Assembly: GCA_017993615.1 (NCBI GenBank)
Contig: JAGOMJ010000001.1
Location: 25,425-89,424, forward strand
Direction of reading: 5' to 3'
DNA: 64,000 nt
DNA from: Smithella sp.
GTDB lineage: Bacteria; Desulfobacterota; Syntrophia; Syntrophales; Smithellaceae
The translations under genes were made by a program, and so were the position numbers. The notes beneath the pieces were generated by a model, which saw nothing but the letters and a program-made list of their open reading frames with translations, was not told the origin of the DNA and did not search any database. This document shows, one piece after another, positions 26,776-42,400 of this stretch. Position 1 is the first letter of the stretch. Each line of letters begins with the position of its first letter.

Positions 26776-26935
26776 GAAGATTATAAAAAATCGTCATGGG
26801 GTATTCAGGACAGTTTCTGTTTTCTTTGCACATGTTTTTACACAGGATGAACCCCTTGCGTCCGATTCGAGAAACAGGCCCTGACGTTGTTTATGAAACA
26901 ATATTTACCCGTTTAAAGCAGTTTCTGCTTTCGTG

Positions 26936-27085
26936 TTAAGAATCGGTTGATGTTTTTTCTTTCTTTCTGTCCTCGACCGGACAGCCGGGTTTCATTCAGG
27001 TGGATACACCCAATTTAGGCAAGAGCCATCCCTGCAACAAAAACCATACCGCAACAATGACGGCCAATATCAAAAAATCATTCAT
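26936..27085 (-). CDS. Candidate 49-aa membrane-anchored selenopeptide (absent from the ORF track)
   Basis: MNDFLILAVIVAVWFLLQGWLLPKLGVST-U-MKPGCPVEDRKKEKTSTDS. In-frame TGA at 26996-26998. Starts 21 nt after the trxA stop. A SECIS-like hairpin follows the TGA, and a hairpin follows the stop codon. Confidence 0.45.
26969..26982 (-). promoter_or_regulatory. SECIS-like hairpin
   Basis: RNA GUCC-GGUCGA-GGAC. GGUC lies at +21..+24 counted from the U of UGA. Confidence 0.4.
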
Positions 27086-27106
27086 TTCCTTTGCCCCCTG
27101 GTGTTA

Positions 27107-27439
27107 TCAGTGGATATGCCGTTTAATCATATCGGCTAGTTTATCCTTCGAGGACAAACCGATCGACGTGTCCTTTACCGTTCCCCCTTTCATGACCAGC
27201 AGTGTCGGGATGCTTTTGATACCGAATTGACTCGCGGTTTGAGGATTGTCATCCACGTTAACCTTCACAATGTCTATCCGGTCGCCGTATTCTCCGGCCA
27301 GTTCCTCCAGAATCGGGCCGATCGCACGGCAAGGTCCGCACCACGGCGCCCAGAAATCCACTAAAACCAGCTTGTCATTTTTTAAAACGGTTTTTTCGAA
27401 ATCACCGTCACCGGCATGCTTGATGTCCTGCTTATTCAT
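27107..27439 (-). CDS. trxA: Thioredoxin
   Basis: 110 aa with WAPWCGPC active site. Confidence 0.93.
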   Translation of the reverse strand: MNKQDIKHAGDGDFEKTVLKNDKLVLVDFWAPWCGPCRAIGPILEELAGEYGDRIDIVKVNVDDNPQTASQFGIKSIPTLLVMKGGTVKDTSIGLSSKDKLADMIKRHIH

Positions 27440-27544
27440 TTGCTCCCCTCCCTTGATATAAAAGTATTTGATTTATCAATCCGCAATTGTTAAATATTCG
27501 TATATTCATAATCGCAAGCATATGTCCCGGTTTGTGGAATGTCA

Positions 27545-27558
27545 TTGATCTGAATCAA
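27545..27558. promoter_or_regulatory. FNR/CRP-family box TTGAT-CTGA-ATCAA
   Basis: Perfect match to TTGAT-N4-ATCAA (extended palindrome CATTGA-N6-TCAATG), 20 nt upstream of the Crp/Fnr regulator ATG. Confidence 0.55.
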
Positions 27559-27578
27559 TGTGGAGAAAAATATTTGCC

Positions 27579-28259
27579 ATGGAACTTCTTAAACAAATAC
27601 AGAACTTTGGGCTGTTTCAAGGCCTGTCGGCGGAGAACTTGAAACTCATGGCATCGCAGGCGTTGCATAAAAAATTCAAACAGGGTGATTTGCTGATCGG
27701 GGAGGAAGATCCCATCCGGGCGTTTTACGTGGTGACCGCCGGGCAGTTAAAGCTTTACAAAAGTTCATCCGAGGGCAGGGAACAGACGTTATCGCTTTTA
27801 AAACCGGGAGATCCTTTCGGTCTTTGTACAGCCTTTGCCACGGAAAGCTTTCCCGCCAATGCCATGGCTATTGAAAAAAGCGCAGTATTGATTATTCCGG
27901 GAGAATTGATGGAGAATGTCGCTAAAAAAGAACCGGTGCTGCTTCTCAACATCATTCAAATACTTTCCCAGCGCCTCAAGGAATCCATGACGCTGATCGA
28001 ATCGCTTTCGCTGAAGGAAATACCGGCAAGGCTGTCAACCTACATTCTTGACGCACTTTCAAGGACGTCAGAAGACAAGAGAAACAAACTGGAATTAACC
28101 ATATCCCACCGGGAATTATCCAAGATGCTTGGCGCAACGCCCGAGGCGCTTTCCCGTGCGTTCAAGAAAATGAGCAACGATAAAATTCTGAAGGTCGAGG
28201 GACGCGTCATTACCGTTTTGAACAGGGAAGAGATGAAAACGCTGGCCGAGGGCGATTAA
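27579..28259 (+). CDS. Crp/Fnr-family transcriptional regulator
   Basis: cNMP-binding-like beta-barrel plus C-terminal HTH (ISHRELSKMLGATPEALSRAFKKM). No N-terminal Cys cluster. Confidence 0.85.
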   Translation: MELLKQIQNFGLFQGLSAENLKLMASQALHKKFKQGDLLIGEEDPIRAFYVVTAGQLKLYKSSSEGREQTLSLLKPGDPFGLCTAFATESFPANAMAIEKSAVLIIPGELMENVAKKEPVLLLNIIQILSQRLKESMTLIESLSLKEIPARLSTYILDALSRTSEDKRNKLELTISHRELSKMLGATPEALSRAFKKMSNDKILKVEGRVITVLNREEMKTLAEGD

Positions 28260-28292: not shown

Positions 28293-29042
28293 TTATCTCA
28301 AATCCTCCAGAGCGATCGTACTGCCTGCGCCGAGACGAATGAAATGCTCTCCGTATTTGCGGGCGAAGAGCTCGCGGGCATTAGGACCGCTGCAGTGAGA
28401 GGCGGCCGCGTAACGGACGCCGAGTTCCCGGAACCGGGCGATGATTTTCAAAATGTCTTCGTCAGCATTGTCGAGCAAATGAAAACCTCCCATGACCAGG
28501 GCCAGTGCATCATCCGGTAAAATACGCTTCGCGGTTTCGGCAATATGCACGATGCCCGGATGCGCACATCCGGTAATCACGACGGTTCCCGCCTGCGTTT
28601 TCAGAAGGGCGCTCTGTTCCCGGATCAGGGCCTCCATGTCGCCGGTACTGTGCAGACCGGTGATCACTTCTCGTGCTTCATTTATGTCAATCACTTCTGC
28701 GCCGTAGCGCTTCATATCTTCTTTGAAGCGGGCGGAAAACGAATGAGGCAGACAAATCCGGAGATTTCGTTTTTCTTTCAGAATATAATAGATGCCTCCG
28801 GTATGATCCCAATGCTGGTGAGAGATCATCAGAAGATCAAGCGATGCCGGATCAATGCCCAGCTTTGCCATATTTGCCGCCAGGACAAGACCATCGCCGC
28901 CGGTATCAAAAAGGATGTTTTGCCCTTCATGCTGGATCAGACAGGAAAATCCCCACGAGCTCTCCAGATCATCCCGGCTTGAATAATTGTCACAGATCAC
29001 GGTGATGAAAGGATCTTTTACCGATGAGCGGACGTTTTTCAT
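28293..29042 (-). CDS. MBL-fold metallo-hydrolase (same subfamily as 47250-48200)
   Basis: SHQHWDHTGG, GCAHPGI, GGFHL and HCSG motifs. Start MKNVRS.. forms an ATGA overlap with the upstream gene. Confidence 0.75.
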   Translation of the reverse strand: MKNVRSSVKDPFITVICDNYSSRDDLESSWGFSCLIQHEGQNILFDTGGDGLVLAANMAKLGIDPASLDLLMISHQHWDHTGGIYYILKEKRNLRICLPHSFSARFKEDMKRYGAEVIDINEAREVITGLHSTGDMEALIREQSALLKTQAGTVVITGCAHPGIVHIAETAKRILPDDALALVMGGFHLLDNADEDILKIIARFRELGVRYAAASHCSGPNARELFARKYGEHFIRLGAGSTIALEDLR

Positions 29043-29890
29043 GACACGTTCTCCTTTCTTATAGAGTTTCCACCTGTAGAACTGCCAATATTTTTGATGT
29101 CGTCTAACATATTGCGCATGCCTTCTGTATCCGGAAGTGCCTCCTTGATGCGTTGGAGCAGGAGGCGATCCTCTGCCAGCTTTCGCGTGGGTGCGTAATT
29201 CATATCGTAAAACCACGATGCGAGCATCACTACACAATCTGTTACCGTACGCAAACGACTGACGGAAACCGTTCTGGTGTTCAATATCTCTTCCATGATG
29301 CCGGGGCTTATGTTCCGGTCCAGACGAATGTGGGGCAGCATATCCGGAAGCTCTCGAAAGCCGTTGCCCGCGATGGCTTTCAGGACCAGATCCATGATAT
29401 CGAGTTTATCAGCATCCCGGATCAATTGCAGCAGACAGTCAGCCTTAGCGGGAAAATGATCGGAGATATCTGAAACTTTCTTATTGTGACATTCTACGGC
29501 ACAAAGGAGGCAATTCCAATCGTCTGCGTCAAAATGCGTCCGCATTCCTTCGGTTTCGAGAATCCGGTATCCTTCCGTGCCGTGATCGATTGTTTCGGCG
29601 TCATGGAAAGATCCGTAACGGACGAACTGGGAAAAACGTCCGATATCGTGGATCAGTCCGCATCCTTCGGCCAAAAGAATTTCCTTCAGTGTCCTCTTCA
29701 GTTCCTGCGCTATCAGGCGAGCGTTTTCGGAGACTCGTAAACTATGCAGGTATTTCAGTTCCAGCGCGGCAGGCAAAGTACCCTGTTTGTCGCGATGGCG
29801 GTTTACATACCGCTCAAACCCTTCCGCAACAAACGCGCCGGGGTCGTTTTCGTCCGCCTTCAGGAGACTCAATGGGCCGGCCTCACTCAT
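29039..29890 (-). CDS. HD-domain phosphohydrolase
   Basis: HSLRV ... LIHDIGR (H..HD) motifs. Confidence 0.75.
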   Translation of the reverse strand: MSEAGPLSLLKADENDPGAFVAEGFERYVNRHRDKQGTLPAALELKYLHSLRVSENARLIAQELKRTLKEILLAEGCGLIHDIGRFSQFVRYGSFHDAETIDHGTEGYRILETEGMRTHFDADDWNCLLCAVECHNKKVSDISDHFPAKADCLLQLIRDADKLDIMDLVLKAIAGNGFRELPDMLPHIRLDRNISPGIMEEILNTRTVSVSRLRTVTDCVVMLASWFYDMNYAPTRKLAEDRLLLQRIKEALPDTEGMRNMLDDIKNIGSSTGGNSIRKENVS

Positions 29891-36091: not shown

Positions 36092-36825
36092 CGGATAAGG
36101 CGAGCCATAAAAATATTCCGGAATCTCCGCTTGATGCTGAACGGCGGGCATTTCTGAAAATCGGTCTGAAAATTACCGGCGTGCTCGCCGGCGGCTCAAT
36201 ATTGTCTTTAGTCTCCAACATCAACAAGGCTTATTCTCTTGATCTTTTTCGGGAGAAATACCCTTATAAACCTCATTACGCGATGGTGTTAAGACAGGAC
36301 CGCTGCATTGATTGCGAAAAATGCATGAAAGCCTGTATTGAAACCAATCATGTTCCGGATTACGGCTGGCGGACAAAGATTTTAAAACGCGACCTTTCGT
36401 CGGCGCTTGATCAGAAATGGGAATTTATTCCCATCCTCTGCAATCAATGCAACAATCCTCCGTGCGTGCGCACCTGCCCGACGACGGCGACGTATAAGGA
36501 TAAGACCAACGGCATCGTGCAGATGAACAACAAAAAATGCATCGGGTGCAAATCCTGTATTATGGCCTGCCCCTACGATGCCCGCTATTATAATGAAGAA
36601 AAAGGTGCCATTGATAAATGCGATTTCTGTTTTGAGTCCAGGCTGTCCAAAGGCATTAATACCCCGGCCTGCGTTGAAGCCTGTCCCTCGGATGTCCGTA
36701 TTTTCGGAGATTTGTCGGATCCGTCCAGCAGAGTGTTTCAACTTGTTCACCAGTTGCAAAGACCTGTGTGGGTGCTGCGGCAGGAGATCGGTGCGAAACC
36801 GAATATTTTTTATATGAAGGGTTGA
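36088..36825 (+). CDS. NrfC/HybA-type 4x[4Fe-4S] ferredoxin subunit with Tat signal
   Basis: Twin-arginine ERRAFLKIG. Four Cys clusters: CIDCEKCMKAC, CNQCNNPPCVRTC, CIGCKSCIMAC, CDFC...CVEAC. Confidence 0.88.
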   Translation: MTDKASHKNIPESPLDAERRAFLKIGLKITGVLAGGSILSLVSNINKAYSLDLFREKYPYKPHYAMVLRQDRCIDCEKCMKACIETNHVPDYGWRTKILKRDLSSALDQKWEFIPILCNQCNNPPCVRTCPTTATYKDKTNGIVQMNNKKCIGCKSCIMACPYDARYYNEEKGAIDKCDFCFESRLSKGINTPACVEACPSDVRIFGDLSDPSSRVFQLVHQLQRPVWVLRQEIGAKPNIFYMKG

Positions 36826-36835
36826 TGATTCAGCA

Positions 36836-38647
36836 ATGAAAAGAAATCTTGTTCTTATAATTCTTCTCGCTCTTTTCTGCATCGCCAATGTCGGTTCTAC
36901 CGGAAAAAGCAGTTTTTCCGACGGCGGTGGCATTCTGTATACGCAGCCGGTGAAATCCGTTATTTTCCGCCATCAGCATCATGTGGATGTAAAAAAAATA
37001 AGTTGTGAGAAATGCCACAGCGGCTTGTTTGAAATGCAGGCTTTGCTTGCCCAGGAGAAAAAGGATTTTATTATGGATTCTCTCTACAAGGGCAGGTACT
37101 GCGGCGCGTGTCATAACGGCAAAGACGCTTTTGCATCCGATAAACAGTGCGCCAGATGCCATGTCCGCATCAGCGAAAAAGATGTGGGGCACGTGAAAGG
37201 TAAAGCCAAGCCATACAAAGCGCCTGTTTACAGTACGGTGGCCACTTTGGGAAAAGACCAGCGGAAGGTCCCGTTCAACCACGAAAAGCATGCGTCGCTG
37301 AATTGCATGGATTGTCATTCGAAACTTTTTCAAATCAGAAAAGGATCAACCAAGATTGCCCTGGAAACGCATCAGTCGCAAAAATATTGCTTTAACTGTC
37401 ACAACGGGAAAAAAGAGTTTTCCTGGAACAATTGTACAAAATGCCATCAGAACTGGAAGGATATTAAACCGTACGGTATTCTGACGGCAAGAGCCGACAG
37501 AGGAAGCTGTGTTGCCTGCCACACCAATCCGGATGAAATGAAATCGCTCGTCAAGCCGCCCGAAATAGGCGGCGAGGCCGAGGGGTGAGCTGGCGCTCCT
37601 CCCCCGGTCCGGGCGGAAGAATACTACAAAGGTTATCTGGTCGATAAAGGAATGATCGGCAAGGAGTTCCATCTTTCGATGGATTGCATTGCCTGTCATC
37701 AAGGCAACAAGCTCGCAAAAACAAAGGAGAAAGCTCATCAAGGACGTATCGCCAGACCGTCCGACAATCTTAAAACCTGCGGCATCTGTCATATAACAGC
37801 CGGACAAAATTACGCCAAGGCCCTTCATTATACGAGCCTGGGCCAGCGCGAAGGCGTCAAACACCGGTTTTCTGCGGCAGAATTGAAAACGTTTGATCAG
37901 AAAGTTTTTGAAAAATCATGCCGATCCTGTCACGCTTCCTGCGGAAGCTGCCACGTCAAATCGCCGCCTGTCGGCGGCATCACCACCGGCCTTCTCCAGG
38001 GCCATAAATTTGTGAAGAAAAACGAAGGCAAAACCTGTGCTTCATGTCACGGTGGAAGAGTATATCCCGAATTTACCGGTGAATACGGCGGCACCCCTGA
38101 TGTCCACTACCAGAAGGGCATGATGTGCAATGACTGCCACAACAAACAGGAAATGCACGGCGACGGCAAATTATATAAATCAAAAAATGATGTCAAAGAC
38201 CGCCCGAAATGCCTGTCCTGCCATCAGGATAAAGGCAATCAGGTCGCGCACACCATTCATAAGGATAAAGTCAGCTGTCAGGGCTGCCATTCTTCCGGCC
38301 AATATCGCCAGTGTTATAGCTGTCATGCCGTGCATGGGTCAAAGGCCGAGCCCGGCTTTATCCTGGGGCTGAATCCGCGTGACCGCAAGACCTTGACAAC
38401 CCTCAGGGTCATACCTACTATAAGAAGTACATTTGAGCCTAACGGAATAAAAATGGAGAATTTTGATGCTCTGCCCAATTACTGGAATTCGCCGGTGCAC
38501 AACATTAAAAAGCGAACAAACAGGACACGCTCCTGCGATGCATGCCATGTGAATAAAGAAGGTTTCCTGAAACCTGAAGGGCTGATTAAAGACGGATCTA
38601 AAGAAAATGAGAAACTAATTTATGACATTAAACCAATAAGCAAATAA
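36836..38647 (+). CDS. Candidate selenocysteine-containing 17-haem c-type cytochrome (7-haem N-part including two c7-like trihaem repeats, U251, 10-haem C-part)
   Basis: Track ORFs 36836-37588 and 37652-38647 share one frame and are separated only by the TGA at 37586-37588. There is one Sec signal peptide, at the N-terminus only. 17 CxxCH motifs. A SECIS-like hairpin lies downstream of the TGA. Confidence 0.6.
37599..37616 (+). promoter_or_regulatory. SECIS-like GC-rich hairpin
   Basis: CCC-CGGUCC-GGG with extra flanking pairs. GGUC lies at +21..+24 from the U of UGA, the same spacing as in the Prx gene. Confidence 0.4.
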
Positions 38648-40725: not shown

Positions 40726-41271
40726 TTACCGAATATGACGGTCTATTTCCCCCATCAGCGTCTGCGTCTGATCGGGCAACAGCGCGAATCCCATGTCATT
40801 CCTGTAAATGATGTTCATTTTTTTATCGACAATCACATACACGCGTTTGGAAAGGGGCAAAAGCCAGTGGTCGGCGTCGTAGAGCTTGGCGATTTTGCCT
40901 TTTTCATCCACCAGCAGAGTCATGTTTTTCAGGCTGTGCTTGGCTATAAACTTGCGGTGCGATTCGGCCGAATCCCGCGACAGGCCGAGAATTTTGATTT
41001 TTTTGGCTTTGTATTTTTTAATATTTTGTTGAAACTCAACAAACTGGCGGATTCAAAGCTTGGTGTCGTCTTTGGGATAGAAAGCCAGTACCACGGCGCG
41101 ATGATTTTTGACAGCATTGCTGAGTTTCCATATGTTGCCCTTTTGATCGGACAATGTAAAATCAGGGGCTACCTGGCCGGAAACCGGGGAGGCGTTTTTT
41201 GCCCCTGTTGAAGCACAGGCTGACAATATAAAGAACACCAGCACAAAAAAAACGAATTTTGTTATTCGCAT
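40726..41271 (-). CDS. Candidate Sec-containing BCP-like peroxiredoxin lipoprotein (U73 at the peroxidatic position)
   Basis: Track ORFs 41053-41328 and 40726-40923 are in one frame, joined by the TGA at 41053-41055: AFYPKDDTKL-U-IRQFVEF...ILGLSRDS. Lipobox ILSAC. GGAGGG RBS before MRITKF. Confidence 0.65.
41025..41043 (-). promoter_or_regulatory. SECIS-like hairpin
   Basis: RNA UUUGUUGA-GUU-UCAACAAA: perfect 8-bp stem starting at +13 from the U of UGA, with GU in the loop. Confidence 0.45.
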
Positions 41272-41339
41272 ATAGCCCTCCGATAAAGGTATGGACGGCG
41301 GGCGGTTCAAAAATAACCGCCCGCCCATCTTAGTAAAGA

Positions 41340-41951
41340 TTAATCGTCAAACGCCATTTTGGTTTTCCAAACTTCCCAGACCTTGCCTACCAGATCGGGG
41401 CCGGGTTTGAGCGTCGGCTTGCCGGGTTTCCAACCGGAGGGCGTGGCTTCGGCGCCTTTGGTTTTGCGCACGTGTTGGAAGGCCTGAATTTGACGGATGC
41501 TTTCCATGACGTTGCGTCCGACCGGCGGCGTCAACACTTCAAAGCCCTGAATGATGCCATCGGGGTCGATGATGAACCGGCCGCGGGCTTCCACGCCGGC
41601 ATCCTGAAGGTAAACGCCAAAGATGTCTCCGACCTTGCCGCCGCCGTCGGAGAGCATGGGGAAGGGGATGCCGCCTTTGACCATTTTGGAAAGTTCATGA
41701 TCATCCCACATTTTGTGGACAAAGACGCTGTCCACACTCATGGATAAAACTTCAACGCCGAGTTTTTTGAATTCGGGATATTTCTCGCCGACCGACGAGA
41801 TTTCGGTTGCTCAGACGAAGGTGAAGTCGCCCGGATAAAAACACAGGACAACCCATCTCCCCAGATAATCGGAGAGCTTCAGATTGATGAATTTCCCCTT
41901 GTGATACGCGGGCGCCGTGAAGTCCGGCGCTTTTTTCCCTACAGTGACCAT
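41340..41951 (-). CDS. Sec-containing AhpC/Prx1-type peroxiredoxin (U47 replaces the peroxidatic Cys)
   Basis: Track ORFs 41811-42065 and 41340-41741 are in one frame, joined by the TGA at 41811-41813: [23 protein letters not shown] lies before [11 protein letters not shown]. Confidence 0.8.
41783..41800 (-). promoter_or_regulatory. SECIS-like hairpin
   Basis: RNA UCUCGUC-GGUC-GGCGAGA: 7-bp stem and GGUC tetraloop at +21..+24, resembling the fdhF apical loop. Confidence 0.6.
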
Positions 41952-42085
41952 GCTTTTGACCTCCTTGACAGGTGTTGGTTGAGACGTTTCTTTCTTCGCA
42001 TCCGGTTTTTCGCCGACCGGTCCGCCGGTGGGTCTGGCACAGCCGGCCTTGATTTCTTCAGCCATAGATGATTCCCTCCTTTGTT

Positions 42086-42400
42086 TTATTTTTTTGATTT
42101 CTTCATTTTCGCGATTTCTTCCTCCACTTCCTCAGCGCCTTCCGCATAGAATTTTCCTTCATCGGGGGCCAGTTCATGAAGCAATCTTAAAAACTCTCCG
42201 GCGTGAACGCGTTCCTCGTCGGCAATGTCCCCGAGGACCTCGATGGCCAGCTTGTTGTCGGTTGATTCCGCGAGCTGCATATAAAGTTGGATGGCTTCAT
42301 ATTCTGCCGCCACCATAAAGCGAATGGCTCTGATCAGTTCTTCTTTGGTCAGTTTCCTGTCCTTCTTCAACCCTGAAAAAGGTGTTCCAAACTCCGGCAT
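42086..42400 (-). CDS. Small ferritin-like/rubrerythrin-family protein (EncFtn-like sequence, no encapsulin nearby)
   Basis: [10 protein letters not shown] ... [11 protein letters not shown] di-iron-type ExxH pattern. 20 nt upstream of the Prx gene. Confidence 0.65.

Follow-up and report, generated by a model that had tools for sequence, protein, structure and literature searches.

A candidate membrane-anchored selenocysteine microprotein encoded next to thioredoxin in Smithella, and its unannotated relatives in five bacterial phyla

Our analysis of a stretch of 64,000 nucleotides from Smithella sp. (GenBank assembly GCA_017993615.1, contig JAGOMJ010000001.1, positions 25,425 to 89,424; hereafter 'the window', numbered from its first letter) suggests that a small frame lying directly downstream of the thioredoxin gene trxA, and interrupted by an in-frame TGA, encodes a 49-residue single-pass membrane selenoprotein, in which the UGA would be recoded by a hairpin of the messenger and a Sec-x4-Cys pair facing the cytoplasm would be recycled by thioredoxin. 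We put the probability of this reading, taken as a whole, at roughly 0.65. Conservation of the frame makes it highly probable that a protein containing selenocysteine (Sec), or at any rate one translated through the Sec site, is made; gene neighbourhoods make it rather probable that its Sec and Cys form a redox pair linked to thioredoxin; and the proposal that the pair serves specifically in the handling of sulfane sulfur is a tentative one. The features of the locus, all on the minus strand, are as follows.

27517–27545, minus strand: sigma-70-like promoter match 5' of trxA (9 of 12 positions in a consensus scan), a possible promoter of trxA and the peptide gene
27107–27439, minus strand: trxA, a 110-residue thioredoxin with WCGPC (TIGR01068, 128.6 bits; PF00085, E 3.7e-31)
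27109–27107, minus strand: stop codon TGA of trxA, read from the sequence
27086–27106, minus strand: 21-nt spacer between trxA and the peptide gene, with GGGGG (27098–27094) 8 nt 5' of the ATG, a likely ribosome-binding site
27085–26936, minus strand: the small frame, ATG at 27085–27083, 49 codons (29, then TGA, then 19)
26999–27085, minus strand: codons 1–29, MNDFLILAVIVAVWFLLQGWLLPKLGVST, with a single transmembrane helix that follows a brief N-terminus and ends in LLPKLGVST
26996–26998, minus strand: in-frame TGA, read as selenocysteine (U30) from the TGA preference across members and the Cys in homologues
26939–26995, minus strand: codons 31–49, MKPGCPVEDRKKEKTSTDS, with MKPGC (Cys35 at 26983–26981) and then a charged, probably disordered tail
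26967–26984, minus strand: hairpin CUGUCC-GGUCGA-GGACAG resembling a Sec insertion sequence (SECIS), its 6-bp stem beginning 11 nt past the UGA, GGUC at +21 to +24 as reckoned from the U of that codon
26936–26938, minus strand: TAA stop of the 49-codon frame, from the translation
26915–26931, minus strand: 7-bp hairpin AAAGCAG-AAA-CUGCUUU 3' of the TAA (-7.9 kcal/mol, z = -1.2)

An earlier note on this DNA had described a same-strand frame of 49 codons beginning 21 nt past the trxA stop, a product with one transmembrane helix followed by ST-U-MKPG-C and a charged tail, and a 7-bp hairpin past the final stop; spacer (27106–27086), start codon (from 27085), translation and hairpin (26931–26915) were all found to be as it said. 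That last hairpin lacks a U-tract and is thus not a canonical terminator. Promoter-type matches are no more numerous in the window than in shuffled sequence, so that the match upstream of trxA is weak evidence for a promoter there. The starts of other family members are likewise preceded by purine-rich stretches, GGAG or GGAGG in most.

To judge from other genes of the window, the organism probably makes selenoproteins and decodes UGA as Sec. The window contains (i) a peroxiredoxin gene, prxU (41343–42131, minus strand), with a UGA (41813–41811) at the peroxidatic Cys position (FTFV-U-ATE), which scores 393 bits against the selenoprotein model NF040737 (cut-off 270) and carries the hairpin UCUCGUC-GGUC-GGCGAGA with GGUC at +21, (ii) directly downstream of it a second AhpC/TSA (BCP-like) gene (40729–41346, minus strand) with a lipoprotein-like N-terminus, a UGA (41055–41053) at the active-site position (FYPKDDTKL-U) and an 8-bp hairpin with loop GUU at +21, and (iii) a gene for a multihaem c-type cytochrome (36818–38644, plus strand) with c7-type trihaem domains and a decahaem-like region, an in-frame UGA (37586–37588; ...EAEG-U-AGAPPP) and the hairpin CCCC-GGUC-CGGG, GGUC again at +21. 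The folds of the peptide, peroxiredoxin and cytochrome genes thus agree with the statement of the earlier note that GGUC occupies +21 to +24 in all three. A multihaem selenoenzyme for sulfur respiration has reportedly been found (PMC13510729), to which this cytochrome may relate. ARAGORN found no tRNA gene in the window; a complete selA, selB, selC and selD set has been described for all genomes with a selC*-type tRNA-Cys, among them a composite Smithella genome (Mukai et al., PMC5389517).

The case that the small frame is a gene rests on its relatives, which were collected by three scans of DNA. The first, over GTDB species genomes with the back-translated core and TGA, TGC or TGT accepted at the Sec codon, gave 23 matches, with a transmembrane helix upstream in 15 of 15 TGA matches and in none of the 8 with TGC or TGT. 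The second, again over GTDB genomes but with a relaxed pattern, raised the total to 47 members with helix (window included), every one of which has TGA and none TGC or TGT, and the number of helix-less matches, 24, agrees with the computed chance expectation. Since both patterns demanded PGC after the UGA, they carried an ascertainment bias, which was remedied by look-ups of N-terminal fragments and by a third pattern, W14...LP[KR]xG[VI]xT-TGH-[ML], run over metagenome contigs with the sequence past the codon after the UGA left free. This third scan gave at least 120 matches, and all figures given here and below for the 117 metagenome loci, alone or within larger sets, apply among the matches listed. 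A helix precedes the codon in 117 of the 120, and in these the codon is TGA 116 times and TGC once (locus L261). Over all DNA scans the count is 163 of 164 for TGA and one of 164 for TGC, in patterns that sampled TGA, TGC and TGT, not TAA or TAG. Such near-exclusive use of Sec (47:0 and 116:1) is unusual, and it suggests that selenium is needed for the chemistry of the family.

Beyond the UGA the frame is conserved as well. Of the 116 unique sequences from the third scan, 101 (87%) have their first Cys after U at +5 and another 3 have it at +6, a U-x4-C spacing which the scan did not demand, whereas the three residues between [ML] and the Cys at +5 vary (RPG, SDS, SGA, SNS, RDA and others); conservation in relatives of the frame beyond the TGA, on which the earlier note had made its reading depend, is thus established. 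The frame remains open for 11–38 further codons. Look-ups of N-terminal fragments in DNA consistently led to TGA, followed by UMSDSC, UMSPSGC, UMSGAC or UMSSTC, with L242 as the exception without a close Cys. In this variant (L242/L243; GCA_900174565.1, FWPU01000034.1, 3001–3180) the sequence runs U-MAPLPRPEDEENESEE...HRC, and UMAPLPRPEDEE takes the place of a segment with a close resolving Cys.

Together, pattern scans and profile searches brought up some 170 loci and over 100 protein clusters of the family, distributed over Desulfobacterota, Acidobacteriota, Planctomycetota, Myxococcota and Eisenbacteria. Its members, about 45–70 residues long, have in common one transmembrane helix with W-x3-[QN]-x3-LP[KR]xG[VI]xT-[U, rarely C]-[ML]x3C and a charged tail of low complexity, rich in G, E, P, D, R, A and S and devoid of conserved sequence. 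Invariant in the first alignment of 16 members were W14, Q18, L22, P23, G26, V27, T29, U30, P33, G34 and C35 (window numbering), and of these W14, L22, P23, G26, T29, U30 and usually C35 are kept across all members, Asn being allowed for Q18 and Ile for V27. The same arrangement (...LPRMGVST-TGA-LRPGC...) turned up in L076, an unrelated locus of high GC content met in a search for relatives by way of trxA, which otherwise gave only unrelated thioredoxins. A protein search with the single peptide sequence (U replaced by C) retrieved only the 29-residue open reading frame of the window itself, and none of the 80 related loci retrieved by synteny around rsfS has the peptide gene; in one of them, L093, a thioredoxin gene lies beside metK. 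What argues against chance is that some 170 independent loci preserve the frame and its TGA, together with a Cys at +5 and an equally placed hairpin. In all likelihood, the 49-codon frame is a genuine gene, and its product a tiny selenocysteine protein which is anchored in the membrane and belongs to a large unannotated family.

The hairpin following the UGA was evaluated by comparison. An uninterrupted one of at least 5 bp whose loop starts at +20 to +27 is present in 52 of 53 members with DNA, as against 24% of dinucleotide shuffles, and one of at least 7 bp in 49% of the 53 members as against 3.8% of shuffles; in the metagenome set, 95% of 114 sequences have the hairpin and 15% of their shuffles. 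These are 41 distinct hairpin sequences among the 53 members and 98 among the 114. The loops mostly begin with GG, AG(G) or GU, while the stems are diverse (CUGUCC/GGACAG, CUGCC/GGCAG, GUUGCC/GGCGAC, GGUUGUC/GACAACC, GCCCGC/GCGGGC, GUCCGC/GCGGAC), and within the CUGUCC/GGACAG class, changes at the wobble positions of the Gly and Cys codons are matched by changes of bases in later codons that specify unconserved residues. Synonymous recoding at matched GC content of third codon positions weakens the folding (mean z = -0.89, p = 6e-9, which is optimistic as the sequences are related), and a hairpin of this kind is absent from the Cys form at L239 (z = -0.15). The conserved position of the hairpin with many different stems answers the call of the earlier note for SECIS prediction. 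According to the published consensus, bacterial SECIS elements have a small apical loop 16–37 nt from the UGA, with a G in the first two loop positions (PMC13188914), and the hairpins of the family, including that of the window with its 6-bp stem and loop GGUCGA from +21, conform to this geometry. RNAalifold, applied to a MAFFT alignment of the region past the UGA, gave no consensus because loop lengths differ while the coding register is fixed, and it was replaced by scoring the hairpin of each sequence against shuffles and synonymous recoding. Rfam at gathering thresholds gave no match in the window.

Protein databases contain the family in fragmented form. A search with the 16-member profile returned about 110 clusters, all unnamed or 'hypothetical', and nearly all either 28–31 residues long or over-extended at the N-terminus, with ...G[VI]xT as their very last residues. 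The search also gave a single full-length Cys form, P0002, whose codon at the Sec site is TGT (L239). Exhaustive phmmer searching with P0002 gave 40 matches, namely 19 with Cys (P0002 included), 12 with Trp and 2 with Arg at the Sec site, 6 truncated sequences and one unrelated repeat protein. The Cys forms, typically T-C-MSGAC, have TGT or TGC at the Sec site and read straight through. The Trp forms (P0113, P0114, P0117, P0120, P0124, P0125, P0127, P0129, P0130, P0134, P0139 and P0147) are a systematic annotation artefact: in L251, the sole one checked at the DNA level, the codon is TGA and gene calling had used genetic code 4. Arg at the Sec site was seen in P0122 and P0123, the former nearly identical to the product of the TGA-bearing L340/L345.

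The earlier note could not place the peptide in a known family, and wider searches led to the same result. Neither the window peptide nor the Cys forms match a Pfam family, and the window peptide matches no NCBIfam family (release 20, June 2026) at E up to 10, including the LULAxC protein TsoA, UGSC, KCU-star and OS_HP3, while ten Cys homologues gave only a few unrelated NCBIfam matches far under the cut-off (E 0.05–0.16). A sequence search of PDB gave no match. None of the 119 prokaryotic selenoprotein families in a review of May 2026 is alike (PMC13188914), a comparison to which the candidate lists of one groundwater study of metagenome-assembled genomes (MAGs) do not belong, and the paper on BSepDB does not mention membrane selenoproteins (PMC13326102). 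The recoding mechanism is ordinary, and the protein family is undescribed in the resources queried; its single helix, Sec at the membrane interface, near-exclusive use of Sec and length of about 50 residues set it apart from known bacterial selenoproteins.

As for topology, the 15 residues after the helix contain on average 1.98 Lys and Arg and the 15 before it 0.31, with the higher count on the C-terminal side in 73 of 80 sequences, which by the positive-inside rule predicts an N-terminus outside and a C-terminus inside. In a Thermodesulfobacteriota MAG (L218; CAYTRL010000183.1, about 2365–2880), moreover, a stop-free frame runs from the motif through a Lys-rich linker into a full thioredoxin domain with WCGPC, and in such an in-frame fusion the motif would share its side of the membrane with the thioredoxin domain. 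From the charge distribution and this fusion, we infer that the U-x4-C pair lies at the cytoplasmic face. L218 is possibly a natural fusion; its thioredoxin part also has an internal ATG of its own (MSGQEAKG...).

The association of the family with thioredoxin is non-random. A thioredoxin gene lies within 3 kb, and mostly adjacent, in 17 of 117 metagenome loci, many of them on short contigs, as against 2 of 104 background loci, both of which are orthologues of the window locus. It stands beside the peptide gene in at least five different arrangements, the fusion in L218 included: (i) directly upstream in the window, in L236, in L239 (Cys form, gap of 22 nt) and in L249, (ii) upstream with a gene for a flavoprotein resembling sulfide:quinone oxidoreductase (SQR) between the two in L250, (iii) directly downstream in L241, and (iv) in ten Eisenbacteria loci in the order ArsR, thioredoxin, TlpA-like lipoprotein, peptide, YkuD. 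In three loci, thioredoxin is found together with a CsoR-family gene directly before that of the peptide. A second set of neighbours has to do with sulfur transfer. In L242 a CsoR-family regulator, a fusion of persulfide dioxygenase (PDO) and rhodanese, the peptide, a rhodanese, TauE, a type III SQR-like flavoprotein and DUF302 are encoded in this order, with the ATG of the peptide overlapping the stop of the PDO-rhodanese gene. L247 has ArsR, rhodanese-YgaP_TM, a peroxiredoxin, PDO-rhodanese and the peptide in its Cys form, then CMD and efflux genes. The order ArsR, peptide, rhodanese-YgaP recurs in the metagenome loci L311, L351, L364 and L371, and the pair of peptide and rhodanese-YgaP in L330, where ArsR was undetected.

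The earlier reading of a membrane-tethered selenol/thiol pair is thus supported by the frame, the Cys homologues, the hairpin and the thioredoxin link, and a mechanism may be envisaged. At the membrane, the selenol of U30 would attack either an oxidant or a donor of sulfane sulfur, Cys35 would resolve the adduct with formation of an intramolecular selenenylsulfide, and the thioredoxin encoded 21 nt upstream would re-reduce the latter. Given the rhodanese/YgaP, PDO-rhodanese, SQR-III-like, ArsR/CsoR and TauE neighbours, sulfane sulfur (persulfide, polysulfide or S0) or a related thiol-reactive species would be the likeliest substrate. It is tempting to go one step further and to speculate, with somewhat less confidence than in sulfane-sulfur handling as such, that this one-helix protein of about 50 residues is a catalytic reductase or relay for sulfane sulfur at the membrane surface. 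Lipophilic S0, polysulfide or protein persulfides that arise from SQR or rhodanese at the membrane might then be opened by its selenol, the Cys at +5 might release sulfide, and thioredoxin might recycle the selenenylsulfide. If so, it would be the smallest catalytic selenoprotein known, and a missing link between SQR, rhodanese and PDO and the thioredoxin system in both anaerobes and aerobes.

Several observations weigh against the main reading. The linkage to trxA that the earlier note had put forward recurs in independent arrangements, up to an in-frame fusion, yet it is not universal: thioredoxin is near only roughly 15–30% of loci and most are without it, and many loci have only lineage-specific, unrelated housekeeping neighbours. 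The enrichment of rhodanese (13 of 117 metagenome loci as against 4 of 104 background loci, p = 0.047) is modest, and because the sequences are phylogenetically related, p-values overstate their independence. About 12 of 116 members, L242 for example, have no Cys at +5 or +6, so that a redox cycle of two residues is not universal in the family. The SECIS-like hairpin of the window is unremarkable on its own (-10.3 kcal/mol, z = -1.5), and it is the comparison among loci that must carry the argument. The nearest neighbour in the Eisenbacteria loci, a lipoprotein thioredoxin of the TlpA type, would fit a periplasmic rather than a cytoplasmic location. Finally, the closest Smithella relative (L081; JAFGLS010000128.1, 2690–2845) has upstream of rsfS only a frameshifted thioredoxin remnant and no peptide gene, from which it follows that the gene is dispensable. 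The pair of trxA and peptide gene is being lost in this near relative.

The main rival to a thioredoxin-linked redox pair is a role in soft-metal or metalloid handling, the Sec/Cys pair binding Cu, Hg, Cd or As or sensing redox state, or else a role as accessory of an efflux pump, the peptide acting with a pump of the resistance-nodulation-division (RND) or MacB type as the 49-residue AcrZ does with AcrB. RND and membrane fusion protein (MFP) genes are a rarer theme of the neighbourhoods, met in Acidobacteria, a Gemmataceae MAG and a Syntrophaceae MAG; an RND permease and/or adaptor is adjacent in three phyla (L236, L187 and, in Acidobacteria, L185, L193, L195, L232 and L234), RND genes are also near the peptide in L287, L288 and L299, and the operon of the Cys form in L247 ends with genes for a CzcB-like MFP, MacB and ABC proteins. 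Regulators of the ArsR/SmtB, CsoR and NikR families occur as neighbours. AcrZ is the equal of the peptide in size and single-helix architecture; it differs in lacking any sequence similarity and a redox motif. Among the known bacterial selenoproteins, several are believed to be metal-binding (PMC13188914). However, the RND permease is matched best by multidrug-type models and not by CusA or CzcA, no Pfam match to AcrZ or to metal-binding families appears at E up to 10, and adjacency to RND genes, confined to a minority of loci, amounts to 3 of 117 metagenome loci, compared with the 17 and 13 given above for thioredoxin and rhodanese. Moreover, the CsoR and ArsR neighbours share operons with PDO, rhodanese, SQR and TauE, a signature of persulfide rather than metal sensing. 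A metal or pump role is weakened by these persulfide-type operons and multidrug-type pumps, and we regard it as unlikely. In five Acidobacteriota loci (L185, L195, L216, L232, L234) a conserved Cys-containing protein of 96 residues is encoded between RND permease and peptide gene, at about -386 to -99 from the UGA; it has a weak match to the transporter-associated PG0541, and in L193 a DUF2892 protein occupies its place.

Markedly less probable is that the UGA is read through as Cys in this organism, by means of a selC*-type tRNA-Cys and a second SelB, a route described for some Deltaproteobacteria. Such a tRNA-Cys is present in the composite Smithella genome, and its use by SelB-like factors has been proposed (PMC5389517), but the near-total preference for TGA over TGC and TGT across five phyla argues for selection of selenium itself, and the window also encodes a classical Sec enzyme, PrxU. 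Very improbable, too, is that the peptide represents a diverged half of a DUF2892/YgaP-like transmembrane domain (PF11127), which ends in a similar ...LGxxT(C). The earlier note had remarked on a vague resemblance of this kind, and there is a superficial likeness between ...CPMMTFLRKLGV and ...LLPKLGVSTU. DUF2892 and YgaP proteins, too, are small, sit in the membrane with a conserved Cys close to its surface and are encoded in ArsR-regulated operons with rhodanese and PDO, and DUF2892 or rhodanese-YgaP_TM genes recur as neighbours of the peptide (L193, L247, L287, L330, L334, L367). Yet neither Sec nor Cys forms match PF11127 at E up to 10, and the peptide has one helix, with just one run of some 20 hydrophobic residues ahead of the motif, where DUF2892 has two. 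Homology was rejected after comparison of the family profile with a DUF2892 alignment by hhalign, which gave a probability of 1.4% (for a narrow DUF2892 alignment); of the suggested relationship, the recurrent proximity of the genes alone stands. Least credible of all is that the UGA is a genuine stop, ending a 29-residue membrane peptide with an attenuator or terminator downstream: gene callers do end at the UGA, more than 100 database entries are 28–31 residues long, and a hairpin follows as a regulatory stem-loop would, but the codon is TGA in all members scanned save one with TGC (within the codons sampled), the Cys five codons on persists though the residues between vary, the frame stays open, is read through in TGT/TGC homologues and enters thioredoxin in L218, and stems change while the amino-acid motif persists and vice versa.

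When compared with known systems, the thioredoxin-linked selenoprotein proposed here is closest in kind to those with a UxxC or CxxU pair (thioredoxin, glutaredoxin, PrxU), with which it shares the in-frame UGA, a stem-loop with a G-rich loop some 20–27 nt on, rare Cys homologues, a close resolving Cys and linkage to genes of thiol redox chemistry; it differs by its lack of a thioredoxin or other globular fold, by U-x4-C instead of U-x2-C, and by its length of about 50 residues. The eukaryotic proteins SELENOS and SELENOK are anchored in the membrane near their N-terminus and carry Sec in a disordered cytosolic tail, and the Cys-Sec selenenylsulfide of SELENOS is reduced by the thioredoxin system. 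In these single-pass proteins of the endoplasmic reticulum, however, Sec is at the extreme C-terminus, whereas in the peptide it is the first residue past the helix; there is no sequence relationship (no Pfam match), and the peptide is bacterial, with its SECIS in the coding region.

If our reading is right, a selenoprotein family widespread in at least five phyla and at least 117 metagenome loci has been systematically missed by annotation pipelines, being tiny and split at the UGA, and is held in public databases as 29-residue stubs or as products to which an incorrect genetic code has given Trp at the Sec site. A bacterial membrane microprotein would then join a selenoproteome dominated by enzymes with thioredoxin fold. 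The peptide can be synthesised chemically, and its linkage to thioredoxin, rhodanese, PDO and SQR offers a handle on sulfane-sulfur handling at the membrane. In the window itself, the genes just upstream of trxA are those of a metallo-beta-lactamase-fold hydrolase (28293–29237, minus strand) and of a divergently oriented Crp/Fnr-type regulator (27558–28259, plus strand).

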